Below, piece by piece: positions 1 through 64,000 of a stretch of DNA of 64,000 bases; the first letter of the stretch is position 1, and each line of letters opens with the position of its first letter. Source of the stretch: Chara braunii (taxonomy: Eukaryota; Plantae; Charophyceae). The stretch lies in NCBI GenBank assembly GCA_003427395.1, contig BFEA01000005.1:6929495-6993494 (forward strand). The letters run 5' to 3'. The position numbers and the translations under genes are program-made. The notes below the pieces were generated by a model, which saw only the letters and a list, made by a program, of their open reading frames with translations, was not told the DNA's origin and searched no databases.

Positions 1-1674
1 AACGATTCAGAACAACGCGAAGGTGTACGATGTGCTCGTCCAACGTCCTACTATAAACCAAGATGTCATCGAGGTAGATGAGGACGCTGCGATCGAGCAA
101 GTCACGAAACTCAGTCGTCATTGCTGCTTGAAAAGTTGCGGGGGCATTGGTGAGGCCAAAGGGCATGACAACCCACTCAAAATGCCCGTAACGCGTCTTG
201 AACGCGGTCTTGTACCGGTCTTGAGGCTGGATTTCAATCTGGTGGTAACGTGACTTCAAGTCCAACTTCGAGAAGTACGTCGCGCCGCCTAACCGCTCAA
301 GGAGATCATCAATCCGAGGGAGAGGGCCGACGTTCTTTACGGTTTGTGCGTTAAGTTTCCGATAGTCGATGCATAACCGTAGATCTTTGTTCTTCTTCCG
401 GACGAAGAGAACAGGTGCACCGTATGGCGAGCAACTAGGGCGAATCCAGCCCTTGTCGAGAAGATCATCAAGTTGTGCGCGAAGCACCTCGAGTTCCTCT
501 TCGCTCATGCGGTAGATACATCCACGCGGAGGGACGGCGCCAGCCTCGAGAGTGATCCCGTGACGTATGGNCCGATCCGGAACCGTTCCGGTGGGGGCCT
601 CGAAGACGTCTCTTTACTCGTCCAAGAGGTGAGAAATGTGTGGGTCCGGCGGTGACGCGGCTGGTCCGTCCGGCGAGGGGAGAGCATGCAAGAATACAAG
701 GCCCATCTCCTCAACGTCATTCCGAGCAATGGCGTCGCGAATTCTCGCAACGGAAACCACGTGACAAACAATCGAAGTGTGAGGGGTCGCGACCGTACAT
801 GGGACTAACACTCCGTTCCGATCACGGATGTGAACGGTTCGGTCATGGAAGTTCACCGGATGATCGGCGCTATGCAACCAAGACATGCCTAGAATCATGT
901 CGAACTTGGTGTCGAGGATGTCAAAAGACACTGGCTCGCACGCAAGTGCCGCAAAGTAGACCGGGATGCCGTCAACGCATCGGTCAATTGACTTTTGCGT
1001 GCGGCCGTCCGCGAGTGTAACTTGCGTAGGTTGCGTCTTCCTTCGAACGCGCGGGCCAAGACCTGCGCGGGCCATAAAGGCTTGGCTCATAAAGTTGCGA
1101 GACGCTCCGCAATCAATCAAGGCACTACAGGTTGCCTTTCTGATTTGAATGCGGATATAGAGCAAAGGTGCGTCGGTTTCAGCGTACCTTTGGGTGGCGT
1201 GATCGCGGTCGATCTTCGCAAGATAGGAGCGGAGATCGGCAACCGCTACCCCGTCGTCCGTCAACGGAGCTGGTACTATAGTGTGCAAGTAGAAGCGTAG
1301 ATTTGTCATCAAGGCGTTGCAATGCGGCCTTGGCAAGGTTCCGGTCGAGGGTAGAGGCATCCAGGCGAGAAGTCCTCTCTCGTGAGCGGGTCAAGGTCCT
1401 CAAGTCTTGGCCACGTCGTCGAGTCCTCGGAAAGCAGTGGCGAACTGACCGGATCACTTGCCGACGGTGTACAGGCTGCGCATACGCAATCTACATGCAC
1501 GTGGCTAGGCTGGTCTAATGGTGGTACCAGCTGGGCGGCATAATCCTCGTACGTAGCACGAGAATCAGCGACTAACGCATGCTCCCCGGTAGTGATATCG
1601 ATTGCTAGCAAGGCAACCGGGTCCAGCGGAGTGAGGAGAGACGTCGCCCCTCTCCTTGCGTAACTCAGTTTCCC
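1..1674 (-). pseudogene. pol: pol fragment: aspartic protease and reverse transcriptase
   Basis: ORF 614..1360 contains ALIDCGASRNF and DMILGMSWL. Past the stop at 614 the frame reads [36 protein letters not shown] and [11 protein letters not shown]. Confidence 0.93.
1631..1674 (-). promoter_or_regulatory. -1 ribosomal frameshift signal (G GGA AAC plus downstream hairpin)
   Basis: Gag ends TCG GGA AAC TGA and the -1 frame is open. An AGGAGAG...CTCTCCT stem lies just downstream. Confidence 0.7.
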
Positions 1675-2904
1675 GAGTTTGCTGGACGGGGTACGCGTGC
1701 CTTGCCCTTTTTGGGGCATTGTGCGGTCACATGAGTGACTCCGTTGCACCAAAGGCAGTATCCGTACTTCTGACGCAGGTCATAGACCTCCTTGGTGATC
1801 TTATATGCCGTCCATGGGTGCTGCCTAGCTCCCGTCGCTGCCGTCTCTTGTGTCGCCTTGTTCTTACGAACTCTCTTGGGACGCTTCGTCAGGAGTGCTG
1901 CGACAATTCCTCCATCACCCGAGGATGCTGCTGCAGCGTGGTGGTCGTTGGTTTCCTCATAAATCACGGCATTGCTATGTGCCGGACGTTGATAGGCTTG
2001 CTTAGCCACATAATGCGGCTGGGATTGTCTCTCGTTAGCGGCCTTGTCGTCCGTTTGGATGACCAAGTTCGCTCGATCCAGAATGGCCTGNAATGTGGTA
2101 TAGTCGTACTCATTACCGAGTGCCGACCGCAATCCCGCGCATGATCGCGAGAAGAACTCGGATCGTTGATTTGGAAACGTCAAGTCGAAGCCTGGTGTGG
2201 TCACTATCTTTTGCCACTTCGTTGTCCAGTCTCGAGTTGGCATGTTCCCCTGAGAGCATGTGTACACCTCATTCATGGCCGCCTTCACGACGTTGCGGAC
2301 CATGAACCGGGTGAACCATAGCTGCTCGAACTCCTTCCACGTGATGTGCGTGTGGAGTTCGGCGATGGTGCACTTGTGGGTGGCCGCCAGGTGGTTCATC
2401 CATGCCTGCGCTCCTCCAATCAGTTGCAAATAGAGTGCCTTCAACATGTCGTTCGTCGTTCGTCGGGGCACAAAGATCATGCCTTGGAGTATCGTTGTCC
2501 GCTGATGCTCACTAGCAATCAGGGACTCCGTGCTGGCGGCATTCCGTCTGTTTCGTGTCGCTTCGTCAGTCTCCGCTGTCCGCTGAGCTTCGGCTGCCCC
2601 CTCATTGGCCAGCCGCTGACGTTCTGCCTCTGCCGCAGTCTGCTGAGCCTCGGCGGCGGCTACAAACGGCATCTGTAAATGCCTGTAGCCGCCCACGATA
2701 GTCAGCCAAAGGCTCGCTGGCCTCTCGGACCGGGCATGTGGGAAGATCTCCGGTGGTGTCTTGTACTGTCAATGCCGTACTTGATGCCGCTGGAGTCGTC
2801 CGTCTGCTGAATCTCTTGGGTCTTGGAGGTACCGCAGGGCAGGCACGAACTGCGATCCTGGCACTGCGCCGTGGCAGTGCCCCGTTGTCCTGTTCCATCG
2901 ACAT
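1665..2904 (-). pseudogene. gag: gag, frameshifted near 2660-2690, with CCHC zinc knuckle
   Basis: ORF 1665..2696 has a retrotransposon Gag core (TWKEFEQLWFTRF...SQG) and CLWCNGVTHVTAQC. The likely N-terminus MSMEQDNG (ATG at 2904) is in another frame. Confidence 0.85.
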
Positions 2905-4016
2905 CAGTCTGAACTGATGCAGTACTTTAGAGGTGCCGGTGTTCACAGAATACAGGGGGGTAGGGAGAGTGGGAACAGGGGTAGAACAATCAAGCAATAT
3001 ACATACAATCCCCTGCCCACTGATGGACTGTAGACACCTAATCAAACAGAAATTAAATTTCCCGTAAATCACTCCAAAATTCGTAATAAGAATTTAATAA
3101 CGATTTAATCAGTAAAATTAATTAATAACGAAATAATAATTCTTAATGATAATCCAAAAGATAACCAATAATCAATATTTGCAAAAAAATAAATCAATAG
3201 TCAATCATTGCAATCATGATAATACGAATTTGATTGGTGTTATGATTAGGTCTCTTTGAGATCACTTGAGTCCGGGGGTTCACCGTTAATGAGTGAACTA
3301 CCCGGAAGTTGCAGTTTGAGGGTCAGATACGGCTTAGTGTGCTAAAAAAAAAATTCGGAAAATTTCAGAAGAAAAAACGCTCAAATTTTCAAAAACGCGA
3401 ATTTTCGGGAATTTCCACCGTCAAAATCCGATTTTTAAAAGCCTAAACCTATTTTCGGAATTTCTCAAGCAAGGGGAACGAAAACAGTTTCGCGAAAATT
3501 TCGGTCCTAACCCTAATTTTCCGCGTTTCTGCGAAATTTCCGGATTTACGGTCCCAAAACGTTCGAATTTCCCTAAGTTGATCTAAAACCCAAAGATTCT
3601 CGTAACCCTAATTTCCAATACGGAAAGACAACGGAAATCCAAAAGACAACGAAATATAGGATTTACAACAAAAATGCCGAAAAACGGAATGCTGAATGGA
3701 AATCAGAAACGCCAAATTTCAACATGATACTGATTCAACCCTAATTCGTGTAACATCAGAAATCCGAAACTTAATCAATTATCGGATTAGTATTACTCAA
3801 TCGGAACTCAAATAGCAGCATACCGGAAGAAAACAGAAATCCGAATTATAAGTCNGAATACCGAATTGAACGGAAATGCCGAACTAAATAGAATACCGAA
3901 AAGAAAATTTTTTGCAACTTTGAACTTAATAGTGGTACAGCTCTGATTTGGAAGATTGAGAAGGCAATCTAATTCCTAACCAGACTTACCTTCGTGAGCA
4001 GATCCGTTATATGGTC

Positions 4017-4029
4017 TGCTCCGATACCA
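4017..4029 (-). promoter_or_regulatory. Primer-binding site for initiator tRNA-Met
   Basis: The minus strand reads TGGTATCGGAGCA, 4 nt from the LTR end. Confidence 0.9.
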
Positions 4030-4033
4030 AAAC

Positions 4034-5081
4034 TGTTGCATACTTCAACGAGTATGGGCAGAACCAAAGATCAACCAATGTAGGATGAGCATGTATGCAG
4101 CGGAAGTCTGATAAACGGACTGACTCACATAGACTGGCTCACATAGCATCACTCCACACGCATACAATCGTGAGATGGTGGGGTCTGGGCCATTCATAGA
4201 CGNTGCCCAGATCCCGTACACGCATTCACAGATGAAAGGTGGGAGGAGAGACGAAGGAGGTGGGGAGGTAGACAACACCGATAGATAGAGTCTGATAGGT
4301 CTCCGATATGGTAGTCCANAATGTNNTACAACAAGATCNAAATGTCGAGGCCCATAGGTCACCAATGTCGGAGATACAGAGTCCAGATGTAACCGGTGTC
4401 CAACNGTGATGCAGCCGAGTATCAACCTCAACAATCTCCAAGTCTCCAATCAGGTAAGTACCACAGTCTCATATCACCGAAGTCCAACTCTGATCTCTGT
4501 CCAACTAGTATAAGTCTCTAGTCTGAAGAAGAAGAAGAAGAAGAAGAAGNNNNNNNNNNNNNNNNNNNNNNNNNNNNNNNNNNNNNNNNNNNNNNNNNNN
4601 NNNNNNNNNNNNNNNNNNNNNNNNNNNNNNNNNNNNNNNNNNNNNNNNNNNNNNNNNNNNNNNNNNNNNNNNNNNNNNNNNNNNNNNNNNNNNNNNNNNN
4701 NNNNNNNNNNNNNNNNNNNNNNNNNNNNNNNNNNNNNNNNNNNNNNNNNNNNNNNNNNNNNNNNNNNNNNNNNNNNNNNNNNNNNNNNNNNNNNNNGTAC
4801 CGGTACTTATACCGGTGGGGCAGAGGCCGGCCTCAATGCTGCGAGNCCTGGNCATGCCCTGAACCGTCCAGATGGACGGTTNANCCCCANCCGGCGGGCG
4901 GCAGCCTCAAGAGCGCCGCCAGGCCCAAACGATAATGCCGTTTGGGCCTGCCCGTCGGGTACTGGTCCAAGATCAGACCTTTAGGGCCTGTAATACCCCA
5001 AGGTCGGGCCTTTAGGCCCTGATGTGTCCTTCCGGCCCCAAGTCGGGTCCGGTAGGACCCGTGTGCGTCGAAGATGTAACA
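4034..5081 (-). repeat. 5' LTR (contains an N gap)
   Basis: TGTTGCA...TGTAACA termini; near-identical to 19782-20907; homology ends sharply at TGTAACA. Confidence 0.93.
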
Positions 5082-19699: not shown

Positions 19700-20907
19700 A
19701 AGATTGAGAAGGCAATCTAATTCCTAACCAGACTTACCTTCGTGAGCAGATCCGTTATATGGTCTGCTCCGATACCAAAACTGTTGCATACTTCAACGAG
19801 TATGGGCAGAACCAAAGATCAACCAATGTAGGATGAGCATGTATGCAGCGGAAGTCTGATAAACGGACTGACTCACATAGACTGGCTCACATAGCATCAC
19901 TCCACACGCATACAATCGTGAGATGGTGGGGTCTGGGCCATTCATAGACGGTGCCCAGATCCCGTACACGCATTCACAGATGAAAGGTGGGAGGAGAGAC
20001 GAAGGAGGTGGGGAGGTAGACAACACCGATAGATAGAGTCTGATAGGTCTCCGATATGGTAGTCCAAAATGTCATACAACAAGATCCAAATGTCGAGGCC
20101 CATAGGTCACCAATGTCGGAGATACAGAGTCCAGATGTAACCGGTGTCCAACTGTGATGCAGCCGAGTATCAACCTCAACAATCTCCAAGTCTCCAATCA
20201 GGTAAGTACCACAGTCTCATATCACCGAAGTCCAACTCTGATCTCTGTCCAACTAGTATAAGTCTCTAGTCTGAAGAAGAAGAAGAAGAAGAAGAAGGAG
20301 GAGGAGGAGGAGAGAGAGAGCTGACGAGGGAGGGAGGAGAGGTCCTCCGCTCCCAGGTACCTCAGGCGGCAATGGCCGCCGTGCTGGCTCAGTCGCCCTG
20401 CTGCTGCTCCGCTTGCCGCTGCGCTAATGCTGCGCTGCCGCTGCTGCTCCTTGCTCGCTCAGTCGCCCTGCTGCTGCTCCGCTTGCCGCTGCGCTAATGC
20501 TGCGCTGCCGCTGCTGCTCCTTGCTCGCTCCTGCGCTAAACTTAGCGCATCAAAACAGTGCTCTGGCGCTGACCNTAACGCACCGGTAGAGTGCCGGTGG
20601 TTCGATGCCTCCAAGTGAGGCTGTACCGGTACTTATACCGGTGGGGCAGAGGCCGGCCTCAATGCTGCGAGGCCTGGCCATGCCCTGAACCGTCCAGATG
20701 GACGGTTCAGCCCCAACCGGCGGGCGGCAGCCTCAAGAGCGCCGCCAGGCCCAAACGATAATGCCGTTTGGGCCTGCCCGTCGGGTACTGGTCCAAGATC
20801 AGACCTTTAGGGCCTGTAATACCCCAAGGTCGGGCCTTTAGGCCCTGATGTGTCCTTCCGGCCCTAAGTCGGGTCCGGTAGGACCCGTGTGCGTCGAAGA
20901 TGTAACA
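19700..20907 (-). mobile_element. Second copy of the Gypsy LTR (19782-20907) with PBS and about 80 bp of leader
   Basis: Near-identical to 3952-5081; TG...CA termini; begins immediately after poly-G and a single N. Confidence 0.92.
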
Positions 20908-25952: not shown

Positions 25953-25955
25953 GAT

Positions 25956-26029
25956 GGGAAATTAGCTTAGTTGGTTAGAGTGCTGGTCTGTCACGCCAGA
26001 AGTCGCGGGTTCAAATCCCGTTTTTCCCA
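25956..26029 (+). tRNA. trnD: tRNA-Asp(GUC), mitochondrial type (NUMT, probably not expressed)
   Basis: Full cloverleaf with anticodon arm CTGGT-CTGTCAC-GCCAG and T arm GCGGG-TTCAAAT-CCCGT. Confidence 0.9.
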
Positions 26030-26093
26030 GGAGGTATGGCTGAGTGGCTGAAGACATTGGTTTGCTAAATCAACATACAACAAGATTGTATCG
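26030..26093 (+). pseudogene. trnS: 3'-truncated mitochondrial tRNA-Ser(GCU), NUMT
   Basis: GGAGGTATGGCTGAGTGG...TTGGTTTGCTAAATC...ATACAACAAGATTGTAT resembles plant mitochondrial trnS-GCU; T arm absent. Confidence 0.85.
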
Positions 26094-42869: not shown

Positions 42870-44170
42870 ATGACCCCCATCCATCTCGCCATGGTTCTTG
42901 CGGCCGTCATTCGATGGCTGCGAAAGAGGGACCACTTGTGCGTTATGTCTGCTATGATTTTCATGCATGCTGTGACGAGCATGGTTGCCTTGCACAATGC
43001 GACGACAATGGTGTTGGTCCTGGCGTACCACTTGTACGAAGATGATGGTGGGGCCGATGCTTTCAATCCGTTGGGTGGGATCCTACCAAAAAGACGGTTT
43101 TGGGTTCGAGAAAGAGTGGGTGGGACGTGGGAGGAGCTTAACATGGAAGGAGTGGGACATGAGAAGAAATTCCGGTAGTACACACGTCTAACGAAGCCCC
43201 TGTTCAACCAATTTTTGCAGCGGATCGCGCCAAGAATACAAAGGATGGACACTCAGTATTGACCGGCGTTGCCAGCTTCATTGAAGTTCGCTTTCGCACT
43301 ATACCGATGGGCGACCGGAGGCTATTACCAACAGTGTGGTAATGACTTTGGGCTGGGATTTCACAGCGCCATCAGATGCACAGACGATGTCGCAAGAGCT
43401 CTTTGTGCTGAGTACGGCATATGCTGTCTTGGTTGACCGGGGCTCGCCTGCGAGGTACATTGGATTACTATGAGGGTAAAGGATTCCCTGGTTGTTCCGG
43501 TGTGAGTGACTGTACATCCGGTGTGAGTGACTGTACACATATCCATATCGACAAGCCACGTGGCACCGAGGCTGAGCCGTACTTCGATAGGAATAGGCAG
43601 TACTCCCTAGTTGCGCAAGTGGTGTGTGATGAGAACCTGCACATTTTAGACGTCATCGTCGGGGTACCTGGCTCGGTGCACGATTCATGTGTCCTACGCC
43701 TGTCTGATCTGTACAAGCGCGGGGAGGAGGGGAGGGAGCCTTTCATTCGGAGGACGAACATCCTCATGGATGGTGTGGTGATGGGACGATATCTGATGGG
43801 TGACGCAGGGTATCCTATCCTTCTATGGCTGATGATTCCGCTTGGAGGACCTGAACGAACTGCAGAGGAAAGAGCGTTCGACAACAAGTTCTCCGCCCTC
43901 CGCAGTGCTATCGAAAGGTGCTTTGGCCGGTTGAAAGGAATGTGGCGTTGCTTTGGCCGGAAACAAATCGCTAATATGCGGAACGTGTGTTACCAGTTCT
44001 TTGCGTGTTGCATTCTGCACAACATTATCATCGATGCCGGCATCCCCGTCGACAAGGACTTGTTGCGCAGGGCAGGGAGGGGAGATGACGACGAAGACGA
44101 CGACGACGACGATGGACATGCAGGCGGGGNTGTTGACGAAGAGGAAGACGATGCGGGGGTTGAGCAATGA
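42870..44170 (+). pseudogene. PIF/Harbinger DDE transposase (HARBI1-like)
   Basis: Motifs RFWVRER, GFPGC..DCTHI, SLVAQVVCD, PGSVHDS, YLMGDAGYP and IERCFGRLKGMWR; stops and a frameshift in the 5' half. Confidence 0.93.
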
Positions 44171-47241: not shown

Positions 47242-48244
47242 TCATCCCATCCATGGCCTGTACAAAACTCCCTGCGATCTTGTCAGCATGACGGTCATCG
47301 CTTCGGCAAGAGCATGTGCTATGCCAGCGAACGAACCTCCCCTCGAAGCGTCAGTCGAACTCTCTGGCACCGCTCGCCGATTATGGCCGCTCCCTCCCCC
47401 GGTCCTCCTAAACTTCGCCCCGTCAGTGCTGTCGCTGTCTGCTTTCCGCTGACTCCCTCCACTCTCGCTGCCGCCGCCGGTTTCATCGTCATCTGTCACC
47501 GTGTTGGTGTGCCCTCCCTGCAAATTGATGCTGTGCATCATGCCCTCACACGAGCCATCTGCCTTCCCAAGCTTCCATTGCAGAGCATCGAACATCTGTT
47601 TGTCGTAGGTTAATGGAAGGCCCGCCTCCTTTCTCTCCGAGCGTGACATGTCCCAGTAGCTCGGCTTGCCAGATTCGCCGGTGTAATTGTGGATCTTTTT
47701 CGCTTTGTTGAGAAGGCCAGAACTTCGACTCGCAGTCCTCCATGGTGCGTTTGGGGAATCCTTGTTCCACCATTTTGCCTGTTATCCAATCGTACTGAGT
47801 CTTCTCCCGTCTCCCCCTGATCTTCTGCCGCCCCCGCCTGCTTTGCTGCGTGCAGTCTTCCTCAAACAGCATCCTCACCAGTCCCATGCTCTCCTTCTCT
47901 GTCCAGTCGGGACCCCGAACTCTCGCCTTGCCCTTGTCTCGTCCCCCACGACCTCCCCCCTCTGCCCGTGTGGACCTTTTCACGCAATCCGGCTGTGGAA
48001 TGACGTCATCAGACTGCACACCCCCTTCGTCGTTGTCGATGTCTACAGTCGCACGTCCTCCAGCCTGGGTCCCTGCAATGTCAACGGGGGGTTCGGCGAA
48101 AGCATCGCCCATGCCGCCATCAATGATGGGATCTCCTCCATCATGACAATGGCTTCCCATCCCGACATCACCACTCCTGGCAGAGATGCCTGCCCCGACC
48201 ACAGGTGCAGAACCACGGTATAGTCCGCTGTCTGAAGAGTACAT
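47242..48244 (-). pseudogene. Harbinger Myb/SANT (trihelix-like) DNA-binding protein, frameshifted; a further exon may lie at 45764-46117
   Basis: GPDWTEKESMGLVRML...YDWITGKMVEQGFPKRTMEDCESKFW, followed by MSRSERKEAGLP in another frame; located inside the TIRs. Confidence 0.85.
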
Positions 48245-49851
48245 AAACTGCGGTCAAACCTGGGTGCTGTTCGGTGGTGCTGCTGCGAAAGATGGTGAAT
48301 GGACCCTTCCCCCCTCCTCCCCCCGACATGGAGTTCGCTGGAACTGCTGCGAAAGATGGTGACTGGACACCCCCNNNNNNNNNNNNNNNNNNNNNNNNNN
48401 NNNNNNNNNNNNNNNNNNNNNNNNNNNNNNNNNNNNNNNNNNNNNNNNNNNNNNNNNNNNNNNNNNNNNNNNNNNNNNNNNNNNNNNNNNCCGTTCACCA
48501 CTGGCCCCCGTACCATGCCCATCATGCACATACCCAACTTCACGTGCCATCCCCCATGCCGGATACGGTGATTGAATGCCAGCATTCAATCTTCCCATTC
48601 CTGAAGATCGCGGTGGTCCAAAACTCTGACTTCCCGCAAGGAGAGAGGTCATACTATGAGGCTCTTTCCCTGGACTATAGACAGAAGTGTGCAGGCAGGC
48701 AAAGGTGGCAAACCGTTCGGGAGGGATGTGGCGATGCGTGACATGGCCGATGATCGTGCTGTGGCGGACAATCCTACCAGCACCGGAGCGCCAGCGCCTG
48801 GGGTGGATGGCGGGACTTCCTGGAAGCCTGTGTCCATCAGAGGAGGTGACGGGGATGGTGATCGCCGTTGCACAGGGTGTCGAGAGTCCATACCTCTAAC
48901 AAAGTTGTGATCAGACGTTGCTATTGATGGGGACGCCGCCGCCGAGCTCCACGGAACGGAAATGCAGCGCCTGGGACGAGCTATGGATCGGATTGCAGAA
49001 CAACGGCCGTTCGATTCTGAAATCGAACTGCTCTGGCAATGCACGTGGCAGAAGCAGTGCTCTCCAGGCAATGCACGTGGCGAAAACGCGGGCATGTTCG
49101 AAATGCTGTGGCAGTGCTGGGAGCGGAAGAAGTGCTCTCCAGGCAATGCATGTGGTGAAAACGCGGGCACGTTGGAACTGCTCTGGCTGTGCACGTGGCG
49201 GAAGAAGTGCTCTCCTTACGAGTGGGAGACAAGCTGCGGGCACGATGAAATGGCACGACCAATCGAAGACCAGGGTTTGATGATGGACCACCGCTGGCAT
49301 CCGTCGAAAGTACCGCTGTTGCAGGAGGAGCACGACCGGTGTGCGGTGCCAGGCCCAGGGCCTCTTCTCCTTTTTCCTTCCTCAGGTAATTTTCCCCGCT
49401 TGGAGAGCCCGGTACCCACATTTGGGACATTGACCGCCAACGGTAGAACCCTCTTGGTTTTCCTCACGTCGCACACCTCTTTGGACCAGCGGACATTCCA
49501 ACACGATGATGCGGACATCAAAAAAAAAAAAAATCAAAAATACAACACCTTTTTCGGGGAAGGGTACGGGCGTGGTGTCTTTCGGGTTTCGCACGAAAAG
49601 CCTTGCCGCCAAATGCGCCCCGCACGCCACGTCCCAGGATGTTTCCACTTCCTTGAAAAAAGAGGGGCCCCTCCGCAAGAGATGGAAAGAGGTGGGATCC
49701 CAACAATTCCCTAAGAGTGCCTCGCCTACAAGAGGTGGGATCTGCCTCTAATCCTGTCCACAACTGAGCAGCCCTGTCCAAATAACCCATTAAATTTTAT
49801 TAAATGCATCTAGGGAACAAACAGAGCTTCAAAGATTCAAACATTGCTTAA

Positions 49852-59431: not shown

Positions 59432-59920
59432 TCAGTCCAAGGCAGGACCTTTTCCTTTCTTATCTCTTTCATAGGCTCTAACTATGTCGGGAACTATCTC
59501 TATAAGTTCTATTCTCGTAAGCCAGCGGTCGTCCTCTCGCTCCTGATAAGCAAATCGGACCTTATACCGTTTCTGTGGACGACCTCTACCTCCTGTTCTA
59601 AACACATCTTCACCTACGATGCCGTCAATGTCGTACCTTCCGTCCATGTCCGGAGGGATCATGGACTGTCTAGATGGAAACTGTTGACTTGTAACACACG
59701 GCGACAACTTTGATGCCTGAAACACAGGGTAGGTATGGAGGTGTGTTGGTATCTCTACTGTATAGGATGACCCATCCTCTCCACCCTTGACTTCTAGAAC
59801 GGGTCACGGTCCTCTATACGCGGGCAGTAACTTCTGCGAGATGTTTCCCTCAGGAGCAAACTTTTTGGACTTGACCCAGATTAAATCGCCTACTTGGAAC
59901 TGTGACGGTGTCGCACTTTT
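59432..59920 (-). pseudogene. pol: Chromovirus integrase C-terminus and chromodomain
   Basis: FQVGDLIWVKS, KLLPAYRGP, VFQASKL, YDIDGIV...YKVRFAY...DDRWL; paralogous to 52690-53200. Confidence 0.9.
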
Positions 59921-60274
59921 TCTAGTCGGGCCTCTTCAGGCGACCAGAAAGCCAACAGGCTGTCACGCAGGATTTTGTATATATTGTTTGCAATAAATAA
60001 AATAAATTAAATAAAACAAATCCCTTCCTGTTGTGTGCGTCCGGCTTCGAACGAGACCCTTGAATTGCGGTTTTCGTCGGTCCCCGGTCTTAGGAATCTT
60101 TTATTTTGATTCGGAACATCAAAGAATCATGCAAATAATATTCATAAAGTTCTGGTGTGTCATGCATTCATCAATTTTACCGTTTCTCTAGTTTTGAGAA
60201 CTGTGACTGAACCATCAAAGAATGCAATCATCAAGCAAAGCAATGTAAAGAAGCAAGACTTACTGACTCGAGCA

Positions 60275-60586
60275 ATGACAAAGTTAAATGAGGGAAGAGT
60301 AAGGACCCGGATAGACCTGGATACATATGATGTGAGAATTTATGTTCCAAAAGAAAGAAGTATGGATGCAGAGTATGGGAGATGTTGGGGATTTGCTGAA
60401 GAGGTTGTACTGAAAGAGAAAGAGAGACTGGAGAAGGAAAATAAATGTTTCACAGGATCTACTCGATTTACTGTCTTTGAGGGATTTTCAGCTCCTCTCT
60501 TACCTGATATTAATTTGTCAAGAGATGATTGGTCTGCAGTGGTTGAGTTTGCTCTGAAAGTGAGAAGAAATCAAAGAATGAAATGA
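60275..60586 (+). CDS. Unknown small ORF A1 (family A)
   Basis: Open frame with ATG in AGCAATG context; shares IDLD.YDV.IYVPK and SRD.WSA motifs with A2. Confidence 0.7.
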   Translation: MTKLNEGRVRTRIDLDTYDVRIYVPKERSMDAEYGRCWGFAEEVVLKEKERLEKENKCFTGSTRFTVFEGFSAPLLPDINLSRDDWSAVVEFALKVRRNQRMK

Positions 60587-61077
60587 GTCAGCTCTACGTA
60601 CCTCCAAGAAAGAAACCCTCGTTTAGACCGGTAAGAGGACATGGGAAGTTAAGTAAGACTGAATCAGATAAGCTTTTAAATTCCCTTAATTCTATAACAA
60701 AGAGAGTTGTGATTCCCTATGAGATCGTAAGATATGAGGCTCTAAAGAATTCAAGCCGAGAGCAGGACAGTGTGTACGTTCTTACCTTTTATTTTATTGA
60801 CCTTGATGAGTATGATGTTGGGATCTACGTACCGAAACAAAGATTTGAAGAGTACAGAAAAGATTCATGCTGACAACGAGCGTCAGATATTGTGCATGAT
60901 GAGAAAAGCAGGTCAGAACGAGAAGGGGAAAACTTCTCATGGAGTACTTATATCAGACCTTTCGTTGGAATACCATCTCCTCCTGTTGAAGGACTTACTT
61001 TTTCGAGGGACAATTGGTCGGCCATGATAAATCTTGTATGGAAAGTGAAGAGGGCCGAAGAAGAGTACTCTCAGTAG
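60583..61077 (+). pseudogene. Unknown small ORF A2 (family A), one internal TGA
   Basis: Track ORFs 60583..60873 and 60892..61077 share a frame; the TGA aligns with Trp in A1; ATGA overlap with A1. Confidence 0.75.
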
Positions 61078-61079
61078 CA

Positions 61080-61585
61080 AGGATAAATATTGTGAGGGAC
61101 AAACTTTATGAGGTAAAGGGGTATGATAATCCCTTTGTTATCATGAGGCATGAGATTTACGGGATATGACATATAACGTTTCACATTCCTTGGTCAAGTT
61201 CTTGAACTCTGACAGTCTGGACGTGAGGGTTTACTCCTCAGCCTGTCTAGAGGAGGAAGTTGATTATTTGGAGTGTCTAAAAGGGGCGTATATCAGTCTC
61301 GAGCGAACAAAAGAGTGGCTAGAGAAGTTAAGAAGAAAAGTGACATGGGGAGTGAGAGCAAGTGAATTTGAGAGACTCCCTGAGTTCTCAATTGCTGATG
61401 GGTTCGAGGACAGGAGAGATTGGATGCCTCTGCTGGAGACTATTATCGAGGTTGGCAGAGCAAGAGAGAAAGACTCTATAGTGATGATAAAATCCCTACT
61501 TTTGAGTACCTTTGAGCACAGATTCGAGATCCCTGATTATGTCCAACCTGAGATTTATCTTTCAGATGTTGCCTATGATGGTTAA
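61080..61585 (+). pseudogene. Unknown small ORF A3 (diverged family A); start codon and 5' part probably mutated
   Basis: 61166..61585 has D.LDVRVY, C, TWG..F and RRDW matching A1/A2. An upstream frame gives PFVIMRHE, similar to A2 PYEIVRYE. Confidence 0.6.
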
Positions 61586-61587
61586 CA

Positions 61588-61878
61588 ATGCCCAACTTGG
61601 TTGAACAACTAACGTTTGAGGTTGTACTGGAAGGTAGAATAGTCAAGATAGAAGAGACTCTTTGGATCTCTAATTGAAACCTCTCAACCCTAGATGAGCT
61701 TGAGTTCCTGCAACCTTTCATTGATCAGATGAGAAATTTTGCCCTGAGAGTTGTCACTGATCAGACTGAGATTAGTTATTTATTAAAGGTGGTGAAAGTG
61801 AGAACTGTTGAGAGAATATCATACCATTCCTCGAGGGAACGAGTCTCTCTTACCAAAAGAATTAGCAACGAGCTGTAA
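61588..61878 (+). pseudogene. Unknown small ORF B1 (family B), one internal TGA; absent from the ORF track
   Basis: Manual translation MPNLVEQLTFEVV...SN*NLSTLDELEFLQPFIDQMRNFALRVVTDQTEISYLLKV...ERVSLTKRISNEL aligns with B2. Confidence 0.7.
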
Positions 61879-61881
61879 GCA

Positions 61882-62154
61882 ATGCAATTTGATTATGAGA
61901 TCATAGACTTGACACGATACTTTATGATTCGGGGTACTGTGAAAGGGTATAATAAAAGATTGAGTAGGGATGATGAGAGAGAATTGATTGAAACTTACAT
62001 TGGAAGGCTGAGAAGGATTGCATTGTCACTGATCGCTATCCAGTCTATTATTGCGTACATTCTCTATGTACAAAATTCTCAAGGGGTAGAGCAGACGAGG
62101 GAGGAGAGAAACGAACATGTATCTCTGGTAAGAAGAGTGAGAAATTATAAATAA
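61882..62154 (+). CDS. Unknown small ORF B2 (family B)
   Basis: Intact 90-aa ORF starting 3 nt after the B1 stop; paralogous to B1. Confidence 0.72.
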   Translation: MQFDYEIIDLTRYFMIRGTVKGYNKRLSRDDERELIETYIGRLRRIALSLIAIQSIIAYILYVQNSQGVEQTREERNEHVSLVRRVRNYK

Positions 62155-62206
62155 GAAAAGGAAGGGCAGGAATGACAGGGAGAGAAGAAAGTATAAGGGA
62201 GAGTCT

Positions 62207-64000
62207 ATGGTCAAGATTGCAGGACGAGGAAGACCGAGTTCTTCTGCAGGGACTAATGAGGAGGCTCTTGTAGGTGTTATACGGGAACTGGTAGAGAGAG
62301 TTGACACTATAAAAGAAGGGTCAGATATTGCAAGAGCAAAGAGGCCAGATGAGAGGATTAAATGCTTCAGAGGGCCTCAAGTAAATGATTTCTTAGATGA
62401 GCATGAATTATTTGGGCTCAGTTATGGCTGGACAGAGAAGCAACAACTTAAACATCTTTTATCTTATTGTGACACTGACTCGAGGTTGGTTGTTTAAGAA
62501 CTGACGGAAGGGGCTACTACATGGGAGGAGGTCAAAAAAATAATGAGAAGATGTTCCGACTACTACCAAGAATCTCCTCAACATCAGAAGAACTAAATAT
62601 GATACTTTCAATGTTTTCCTTCAGACCTTTATCAGAACGACCAAAAGAATTTCATACTTGGATGAGGCTCAGAAATGTCATATTTTCCTGACCAATTTCA
62701 CTGAAAGGAAGACTGTTCTTAATCAGGCTCAACACTATCCTCTCAGATGGGATGAAATGGTTGCAATTGTTAGAACCCTACCTACGGTCTCTCACAAGAA
62801 GTGGTCGTTGGATCAGATCAGTACATTGGCCAAAGATTGGGAGACTGAGAATGGTATAAACAGGGGGAACAACTTGAGTGTTGAAAATATTATTCAAAGG
62901 GTCATGGCTAATTATATGCCTGCCAATCATGTTGTGGATCAGAAAGGGAAGAAAAAGGCGGAGAGTGATGATGATGAGGATGATGATGATGATGATGATG
63001 AAAACTATGGTAAGAGAGGGGATTCCTCCAGACCCCGAAAGAATTAAGGGAATGGTAAAAAAAGGAACAGAGAGAAAAGGAAGTACGACGAGCGACCAAG
63101 GAAATTTTTTGTCTGTTATTATTGTGGTGAAGGAGGTCACACAACCACTTACTGTAAGTCATTGGAAGGGGATGTGAAGAGTGGGGTGGCAAAGAAGAAT
63201 GCAATGAGTCATATTTGTGACAGTTCATGGAACAAATTAGATCCATACATCCTGGAGGTATGCGACTTCTTGCTCTTAAGCATGATGAAAAAATGAAGAA
63301 AAAGAAGAAAAGAAAGGCTAATGTGAATGTTCATACTTTCGTAAGCGAACTGCCTAAGGGACTCACACAAGAGTCTGATGATTCACTTGCCTTTATTGAG
63401 TTGCCCCGACGGTCTCTCTCTTTAGTGGAGGACGTGACTGATGACATCATTCCAGGCAGTTTTTCGTTCGGAGAGAATTCTACTCCTCATATTTCCTCTG
63501 AGTTGGCAATATTTTCTCCTAACAGGCCTACTTGTTCGGCTAACATGATGTCATTTGAATGTAACTTACCACCAGAACTTGTTATGGAACCGGACACAGT
63601 GATTGGGGAAGTGAGGAATGTTCATGCACATTTAACCTCTCAAATGATAGAGAGAAAAAAAAAAAAAGGTCGAGGAGGCTCTGATTGAAATTCTTAATGA
63701 TCAAGAACCAGAACCTTTAACCAAGAGAATTGAGCAAGGGAAAAATATAAAATTTATACTCAAGAGTGAACTAGAGGATGAAACAGTAATTACTGATGTA
63801 ATTACTAAGATGTTGGAAGAAATAAAGGTGGCGTTGTCCTTTAAGAAGACAATGACACTAGCGCCTAAGTTGAGAGAGGAATTGAAGAAATTAATTGAGA
63901 AGAAAATGATGAAAGTTAACTACTTGGGATGAGTCTTTCCTAGTCAGGTTAACAAGACTCTGCCCGGATGTAAGATGAGATTCACAACCATGGGTTTAAC
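62207..64000 (+). pseudogene. gag: LTR-retrotransposon gag with CCHC knuckle and start of the gag-pol linker; continues beyond the window
   Basis: FRGPQVNDFLDEHE...GW and TWEEVKK resemble Gag; CYYCGEGGHTTTYC knuckle at 63114-63155; multiple stops and frameshifts. Confidence 0.75.

Follow-up and report, generated by a model that had tools for sequence, protein, structure and literature searches.

Five Small Reading Frames of Two Duplicated Families Between a Probable 5' LTR and a Gag-like Gene in Chara braunii

Organization of the locus

Near the right end of the window, by which we mean the whole 64,000-nucleotide stretch of Chara braunii DNA analysed here, five small reading frames follow one another on the plus strand in front of a decayed gag-like gene. 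A1 (60275-60586, 103 amino acids) is open and consists of the A-family core without the family's N-terminal part, while A2 (60583-61077, 164 amino acids) is an A-family gene of full length, interrupted by a single in-frame stop at 60871. A3, the most diverged of the A paralogues, occupies an open frame at 61154-61585 and extends from its ATG over 61166-61585 (139 amino acids). These are followed by B1 (61588-61878, 96 amino acids), which has one in-frame stop at 61675, and by B2 (61882-62154, 90 amino acids), which is open. The first-pass annotation had described five co-oriented ORFs with almost no spacer between them. Five frames do lie at that place and on that strand, with 2 stops in 592 codons compared with 110 in the other two plus-strand frames, but the in-frame stops make A2 and B1 read-throughs rather than open ORFs.

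The tight packing holds at three of the junctions: the A1 stop overlaps the A2 start in an ATGA (-4 nt), B1 starts 2 nt past the A3 stop, and B2 starts 3 nt past the B1 stop. It does not hold between the A2 stop and the A3 ATG, where 88 nt intervene, a gap that closes only if A3 starts near 61083 across a frameshift near 61190. A3 probably does begin there. In other copies, a one-base length difference occurs near 61190 (depth units 279.5/450.5 in DNA run X1 and 107.8/150.9 in X2), and the homology of the piece upstream of A3 to the A-family N-terminal part is below significance. With stops in A2 and B1 and a likely frameshift in A3, the copy in the window is decayed.

The gag-like gene (62207-64000, plus strand) carries a CCHC zinc knuckle at 63114-63155, contains several breaks, and leaves the window before protease or reverse transcriptase (RT). 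Its identification as a retrotransposon gag is favoured by the visible CX2CX4HX4C motif and the context, and is weakened by a Pfam zf-CCHC match (E 0.09) that falls below the cut-off. No capsid match was obtained for this gene in Pfam or the PDB, and a word-seeded protein search with its N-terminal part returned 251 candidates, none of them significant. The zinc-knuckle region is 72% identical to C. braunii GBG76466.1, with 69% and 54% over 62943-63592 in a second comparison, and this gene model also contains a stretch weakly like the terminal part of Ty3 RNase H (4OL8, E 0.86). The gag-like gene presumably resembles Ty3 gags of the moss/fungal type.

On the left, the element starts at 59909 with TG, as indicated by the unlike flanks found before that point in 144 (X1) and 111 (X2) contigs, whose agreement is 0.4. 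It interrupts a chromovirus integrase gene on the minus strand: the integrase match runs from 59450 up to the probable left target site at 59905-59908, and chromovirus RNA reads depart from the window sequence at these same four positions. The target site fits NCGN, and in both DNA runs the consensus of the sequences flanking other copies terminates in this motif too. A probable 5' LTR (59909-60131, plus strand) follows, and depth in the DNA runs falls about 10-20 fold past the bin at 59988-60131. In plus sense, the LTR-like part has TATATA at 59978, AATAAA four times within 59992-60015 and, at 60029-60040, a tract rich in GT, and such signals in the first 220 nt are expected of a 5' LTR driving downstream genes. 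No primer-binding site was recognised past the LTR, whose 3' end is only approximate; no 9-nt self-complement was found, and one TGG, at 60153, could not be assigned to a tRNA. A second element starting at 59961 was considered and dropped, as contigs continue through the position and the listed flanks do not accumulate at it. The element is likely of the Ty3/gypsy class and Phygy-like, an assignment made in a window that ends before RT.

Several other features of the window were recorded alongside. The interrupted element appears as a chromovirus-type Ty3 at 59908-52690 on the minus strand, with an integrase end (59908-59432), a probable LTR, the start of a gag that runs downward from 57828, and another integrase end at 53868-52690, and it possibly comprises two units with a common LTR and an internal deletion. 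In both DNA runs, the flank consensus before 59909 includes a stretch that presumably resembles the 3' terminus of tRNA-Asp. Nesting of copies in the primer site of another element, biased targeting, or an oppositely oriented LTR could account for it. Additionally, ARAGORN calls a tRNA-Asp at 25955-26030, which has an atypical 3' end and may be a tRNA-derived repeat. A second chromovirus-type Ty3, with gag, protease and RT on the minus strand, lies at 1-5081 and 19700-20907, and the repeats at 3952-5081 and 19700-20907 are 98-99% identical. Further, the ORFs at 43412-44170 and 47546-48253 presumably represent a PIF/Harbinger nuclease and its Myb/SANT-like partner.

Two paralogue families and past coding selection

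The division of the five proteins into one family of A1, A2 and A3 and another of B1 and B2, proposed in the first-pass annotation, is upheld by local alignment against 5000 shuffles per pair. None of the shuffles reached the score for A1/A2 (z = 30.7), A1/A3 (z = 9.7) or B1/B2 (z = 15.1), and one did for A2/A3 (z = 6.2). All six A-B pairs were at chance in the shuffle test, and profile comparison gave no A-B relation either. The paralogy within A and within B supports the suggested expansion by duplication.

As had been observed, the similarity is clear in protein and weak in DNA. It is near chance in DNA for every pair except A1/A2, which scores 31 against a shuffle maximum of 29 (0 of 300 shuffles) and is seen in DNA as a repeat spaced 485 nt, with a nearly gap-free codon alignment. 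Past coding selection, the conclusion originally drawn from this pattern, is corroborated by codon alignments of four paralogue pairs, in which the similarity is frame-specific and silent sites are near-saturated. Codon position 2 is the most identical in all four pairs. The BLOSUM sum for A1/A2 is 173 in the annotated frame versus 16 and 31 in the others, and for B1/B2 it is 116 versus -6 and -51. Estimates of dN and dS are 0.55 and 2.13 for A1/A2 and 0.84 and 1.50 for B1/B2, ratios that are biased downward by the protein-guided alignments from which they were obtained. Among the 18 differences listed within the ORFs between the window copy and other copies, 14 are non-synonymous, and the changes are mostly private to the decayed window copy, as neutral decay would produce; the evidence for constraint therefore comes from between the paralogues and not from among the copies.

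Relatives and structure of the cassette proteins

A profile built from the three A cores was compared with 1.84 billion representatives and yielded seven matches, four of them real (E 5e-25 to 9e-13); the other three, two repeat proteins and IFIT2, were dropped as spurious, arising from repeats or chance. P0007 is an intact protein of 161 amino acids that is 44% identical to A2 over 140 amino acids, and P0008, P0010 and P0014, from ENA contigs, form a separate A group at 25-38% identity. The ENA contigs carrying A homologues are 513-644 nt long. In C. braunii GBG64722.1, an A1-like core (76% identical) is joined to the full A-family N-terminal part; together with the zinc-knuckle match, this protein points to a host that is C. 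braunii or closely related to it. The complete A domain spans about 130 amino acids with invariant D, V, Y, C, A and E, and the paralogues have diverged to 21-40% identity; no further A copies were found within the 64-kb window. The C. braunii gene models P0006 and P0009 are both chimeras assembled from parts of retrotransposons that belong to different families, and accessory domains can thus lie hidden within annotated Chara proteins.

Neither family had been assigned a domain at first sight, and the searches agree, since Pfam, PHROGs and NCBIfam gave no match at cut-off for any cassette protein; the searches for B covered these three together with the PDB and the ESM Atlas. IMG/VR yielded no viral relatives, with 0 of 21 candidate stretches accepted in one scan and 0 of 17 in the other. 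The word-seeded protein search with A1 gave three candidates, none significant, and the ESM Atlas gave no usable match for A1 and a best value of 0.76 for B2. Further candidates were rejected. IFIT5, reached by sequence in the PDB, went from E 0.0015 with a three-row profile to 0.069 with eight rows and was set aside as chance, and the 2 of 145 stretches that reached E 1e-4 in a metagenome scan were both discounted; L002 matches off frame within the gene of a bacterial ATPase, and L001 has the same score. Two AlphaFold models are of low confidence (pLDDT 50 and 68), and each starts with a beta-hairpin plus a helix. Fold searches with the models produced no convincing match, with best E values of 0.14 and 0.25 in BFVD and a best Z of 6.5 in VIA, the latter on generic helices. 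Hydropathy in a 19-residue window stays below 0.8 at its maximum in four of the five proteins. B2 is a basic protein with a single hydrophobic stretch (1.94), which B1 lacks, and in view of this lack of a conserved membrane segment the cassette proteins are not env-like.

Copies, transcripts and linkage to gag

Copies of the element were examined through public runs, of each of which 6-12% was read. Contig pieces on 59700-64000 number 12,138 and 12,080 in the two DNA runs, most of them below 95% identity, and the cassette belongs to a repeat family. It also varies between copies. Behind 60298, 53 and 52 contigs in the two DNA runs pass into another sequence that keeps the frame and has no stop. 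By eye, this sequence is either the N-terminal part missing from A1 (with an NSL motif as in A2 and P0007) or A1 in a diverged form. In addition, a single contig in each run lacks the 485 nt between matching points of A1 and A2, which creates an in-frame fusion of the two.

The RNA runs X5 and X6, at the same 6-12% of each run, gave no support for expression of the cassette. In X6, both strands are covered equally and coverage tracks DNA depth (rho 0.89, 26 bins); in X5, the few cassette reads have the mate orientation of the minus-strand neighbour and are likely antisense. The interrupted chromovirus family, unlike the cassette element, shows strand-biased RNA in X5 over window positions 59700-59908 (43.9 vs 7.3).

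Whether the cassette belongs with gag was addressed by comparing the two sides of their junction. Composition is closely alike (cassette/gag: A.33/.34, C.15/.15, G.26/.26), CpG is depleted to 0.49 in the cassette and 0.35 in gag, and stop density is also alike. Median bin depth, over 13 bins each, is 3928 in the cassette and 2915 downstream in X1, and 2070 and 1313 in X2, where contig depth does not equal copy number. Between B2 and gag, no junction, terminal repeat or composition step was found. Contigs of other copies bridge A1-A2, A2-A3 and B1-B2; among the 16 listed of about 24,450 contig pieces, none bridges A3-B1 or B2-gag under a 31-letter rule. The B2-gag joint is crossed by one contig per run, across a deletion and with 24 letters on one side, and 23 contigs ending at 62180 extend leftwards into sequence resembling the B2-gag spacer; the loose ends listed were 24 of about 2,530. 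The linkage to gag that had been anticipated thus draws on similar depth, similar composition and the spacer-like leftward contigs, and lacks a long contig from B2 to gag among those listed. Linkage in other copies is likely.

Interpretation

The five ORFs probably form an accessory cassette of this element, made up of two duplicated families, with a likely 5' LTR before them and a likely gag behind. All five are likely carried on one LTR-driven RNA and read serially by stop-start reinitiation, which would produce much A1 and little Gag. Termination-reinitiation is suggested by the stop-start junctions together with the lack of AUG depletion, as the cassette holds 49 ATGs against 44.9 expected, some of which decay may have added. 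AUGA and UAAUG are described as reinitiation sites, and termination-reinitiation as operating in caliciviruses and SART1, in the available portion of PMC10275272, and the leaky scanning of badnaviruses is stated to require AUG-free upstream ORFs in that of PMC5902531. A cost of this layout, and a point against it, is that translation of gag would be severely curtailed by five ORFs ahead of it; no acceptor-like site before gag was found in the sequence.

If the ORFs are an accessory cassette of the element, their proteins may act against host defences such as silencing, a role that we consider plausible, though slightly short of an even prospect, by analogy. It is proposed because the proteins are small and without a conserved membrane segment, because they have been duplicated, have diverged deeply and differ between copies, because the family shows CpG loss, and because transposable elements offer a precedent in anti-silencing and fast-evolving accessory proteins (PMC13547354, in its accessible part). 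Taken as a whole, duplicated accessory genes of an LTR retrotransposon, translated by reinitiation and serving counter-defence, are on balance the explanation we favour.

Unlikely, in our estimate, is that the same cassette of the same element encodes proteins for replication or spread, such as particle or RNA chaperones, reinitiation helpers, or factors of nuclear import or of movement through nodal plasmodesmata. Sharing an RNA with gag would suit such helpers, as would the basic B2 with its hydrophobic stretch of 1.94, and caulimovirids combine small upstream ORFs with a reinitiation factor (PMC5902531, as excerpted). However, B1 has no hydrophobic stretch, no long extra ORFs are recorded for elements of the related Phygy and Selgy clades, and core helpers would be expected only rarely to triplicate and diverge to 21-40% identity.

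Less probable still is a separate passenger, that is, captured viral or other mobile DNA which some copies or a non-autonomous subfamily carry and which once encoded proteins without serving this gag. Comparable depth on both sides, a similar spacer before gag in other copies, and the passage from B2 to gag over 52 nt with no junction, terminal repeat or composition step all speak against it, although an LTR-like part 10-20 times deeper than the interior, several-fold depth differences between bins, weak direct B2-gag bridges, and ENA homologues on contigs of just 513-644 nt are what a passenger might leave. The polycistronic layout, the A+G-rich coding strand and the zinc knuckle would also be met in an endogenous pararetrovirus of the caulimovirid kind, with small ORFs before the capsid protein; this is highly improbable in view of the sharp end that starts with TG and before which over 100 contigs in each run have unlike flanks, the lack of a movement-protein or other Pfam match, the absence of AUG depletion, and the lack of relatives in IMG/VR. 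Non-coding tandem duplications left open by chance, to which the stops, the probable frameshift and the missing sign of expression in the window copy might point, are scarcely credible, as they are contradicted by the frame-specific similarity, the avoidance of stops and the intact homologue at 44% identity.

Returning to the accessory genes of an LTR retrotransposon, their most far-reaching form would be a Chara LTR lineage in which two new families of small proteins are encoded by a polycistronic array of the kind found in viruses. The array would be read by reinitiation, would expand, fuse and contract among copies like a gene accordion, and would disarm silencing, which is possible but doubtful. 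Were it true, the algal relatives of land plants would have supplied new anti-silencing proteins. Five constrained small genes upstream of gag would further imply that an LTR element can carry an accessory region in the style of viruses and must solve polycistronic translation, and A and B, as two small, apparently soluble, unannotated protein families, are suited to silencing and reinitiation assays.

Comparison with known systems

The published descriptions compared below are represented by partial texts, and the contrasts apply to those portions. Neither a five-gene 5' cassette nor an account of the A and B families was found in the mostly open-access literature, a body of work without the Chara genome paper, the Chara repeat libraries and the REXdb sequence supplement. 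The first-pass annotation had held that known extra ORFs in plant LTR elements are mostly single. Single or paired ORFs do prevail in the reports, and the contrast is weaker than it looks, for the main survey counted ORFs of at least 250 codons only and would have missed all five cassette ORFs (PMC6317226, in part); small-gene arrays in LTR elements would in general escape surveys that ignore ORFs below 250 codons.

Viruses and other mobile elements offer partial parallels. Badnaviruses and tungroviruses place the small ORFs I and II before capsid/gag, fused or with stop and start close together, which is the packing seen here, but the upstream ORFs of badnaviruses are described as free of internal AUGs (PMC5902531, excerpted text), which the cassette ORFs possess. 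Endogenous Caulimoviridae have no LTR-type integration end, whereas the present element has a sharp TG end with unlike flanks. Reinitiation in caliciviruses and SART1 serves a single junction in the available account (PMC10275272), compared with the five in series proposed before gag here. The VANDAL elements with their VANC proteins are multi-gene transposable elements with fast-evolving accessory proteins (PMC13547354, in part); they are DNA transposons of eudicots, no sequence similarity to the cassette was found, and the likeness is one of functional analogy. Burro and the Terminons are retroelements with several accessory functions, whose extras, according to the portion of PMC6431247 at hand, can be recognised as enzymes or domains and are for the most part long or contained in the polyprotein. 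Charophyte retrotransposons that carry DNMT are likewise reported to acquire extra domains (PMC5890265, partial text), while the cassette extras have no recognised domain.

Among plant LTR elements, the extras are one or two long ORFs, often with the plant mobile domain, or else env-like ORFs in 3' position or antisense ORFs (PMC6317226, PMC7264820 and PMC6431247, as far as these texts extend), as opposed to the five short sense ORFs in two duplicated families found here. Most extra ORFs outside Ogre lie 3' of pol and are of obscure origin and function (PMC7264820, in part), and Retrosat2 ORF0 is a further extra ORF in a plant LTR element (PMC3485330, in part). Ogre elements of the Tat group have extra coding capacity upstream of gag (PMC6317226, PMC7264820 and PMC6431247, in the same portions), a position common to the cassette, and one or two extra ORFs are given for them (PMC6431247); the Ogre 5' ORF is a single long one, often with the plant mobile domain PF10536, in contrast to five short ORFs without a Pfam match. 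The Phygy clade is listed with a 4-nt NCGN target preference, the same as at the element's left end and in the flank consensus of its copies. In the available part of the same survey (PMC6317226), the polyproteins of Phygy and Selgy fill the interior with no extra ORFs of at least 250 codons, whereas 1.9 kb of small genes precede gag here, and their primer sites correspond to tRNA-Trp or tRNA-Ala, neither of which was recognised in this element. Extra ORFs in LTR elements are already known, and a five-gene cassette at the 5' side is unusual.
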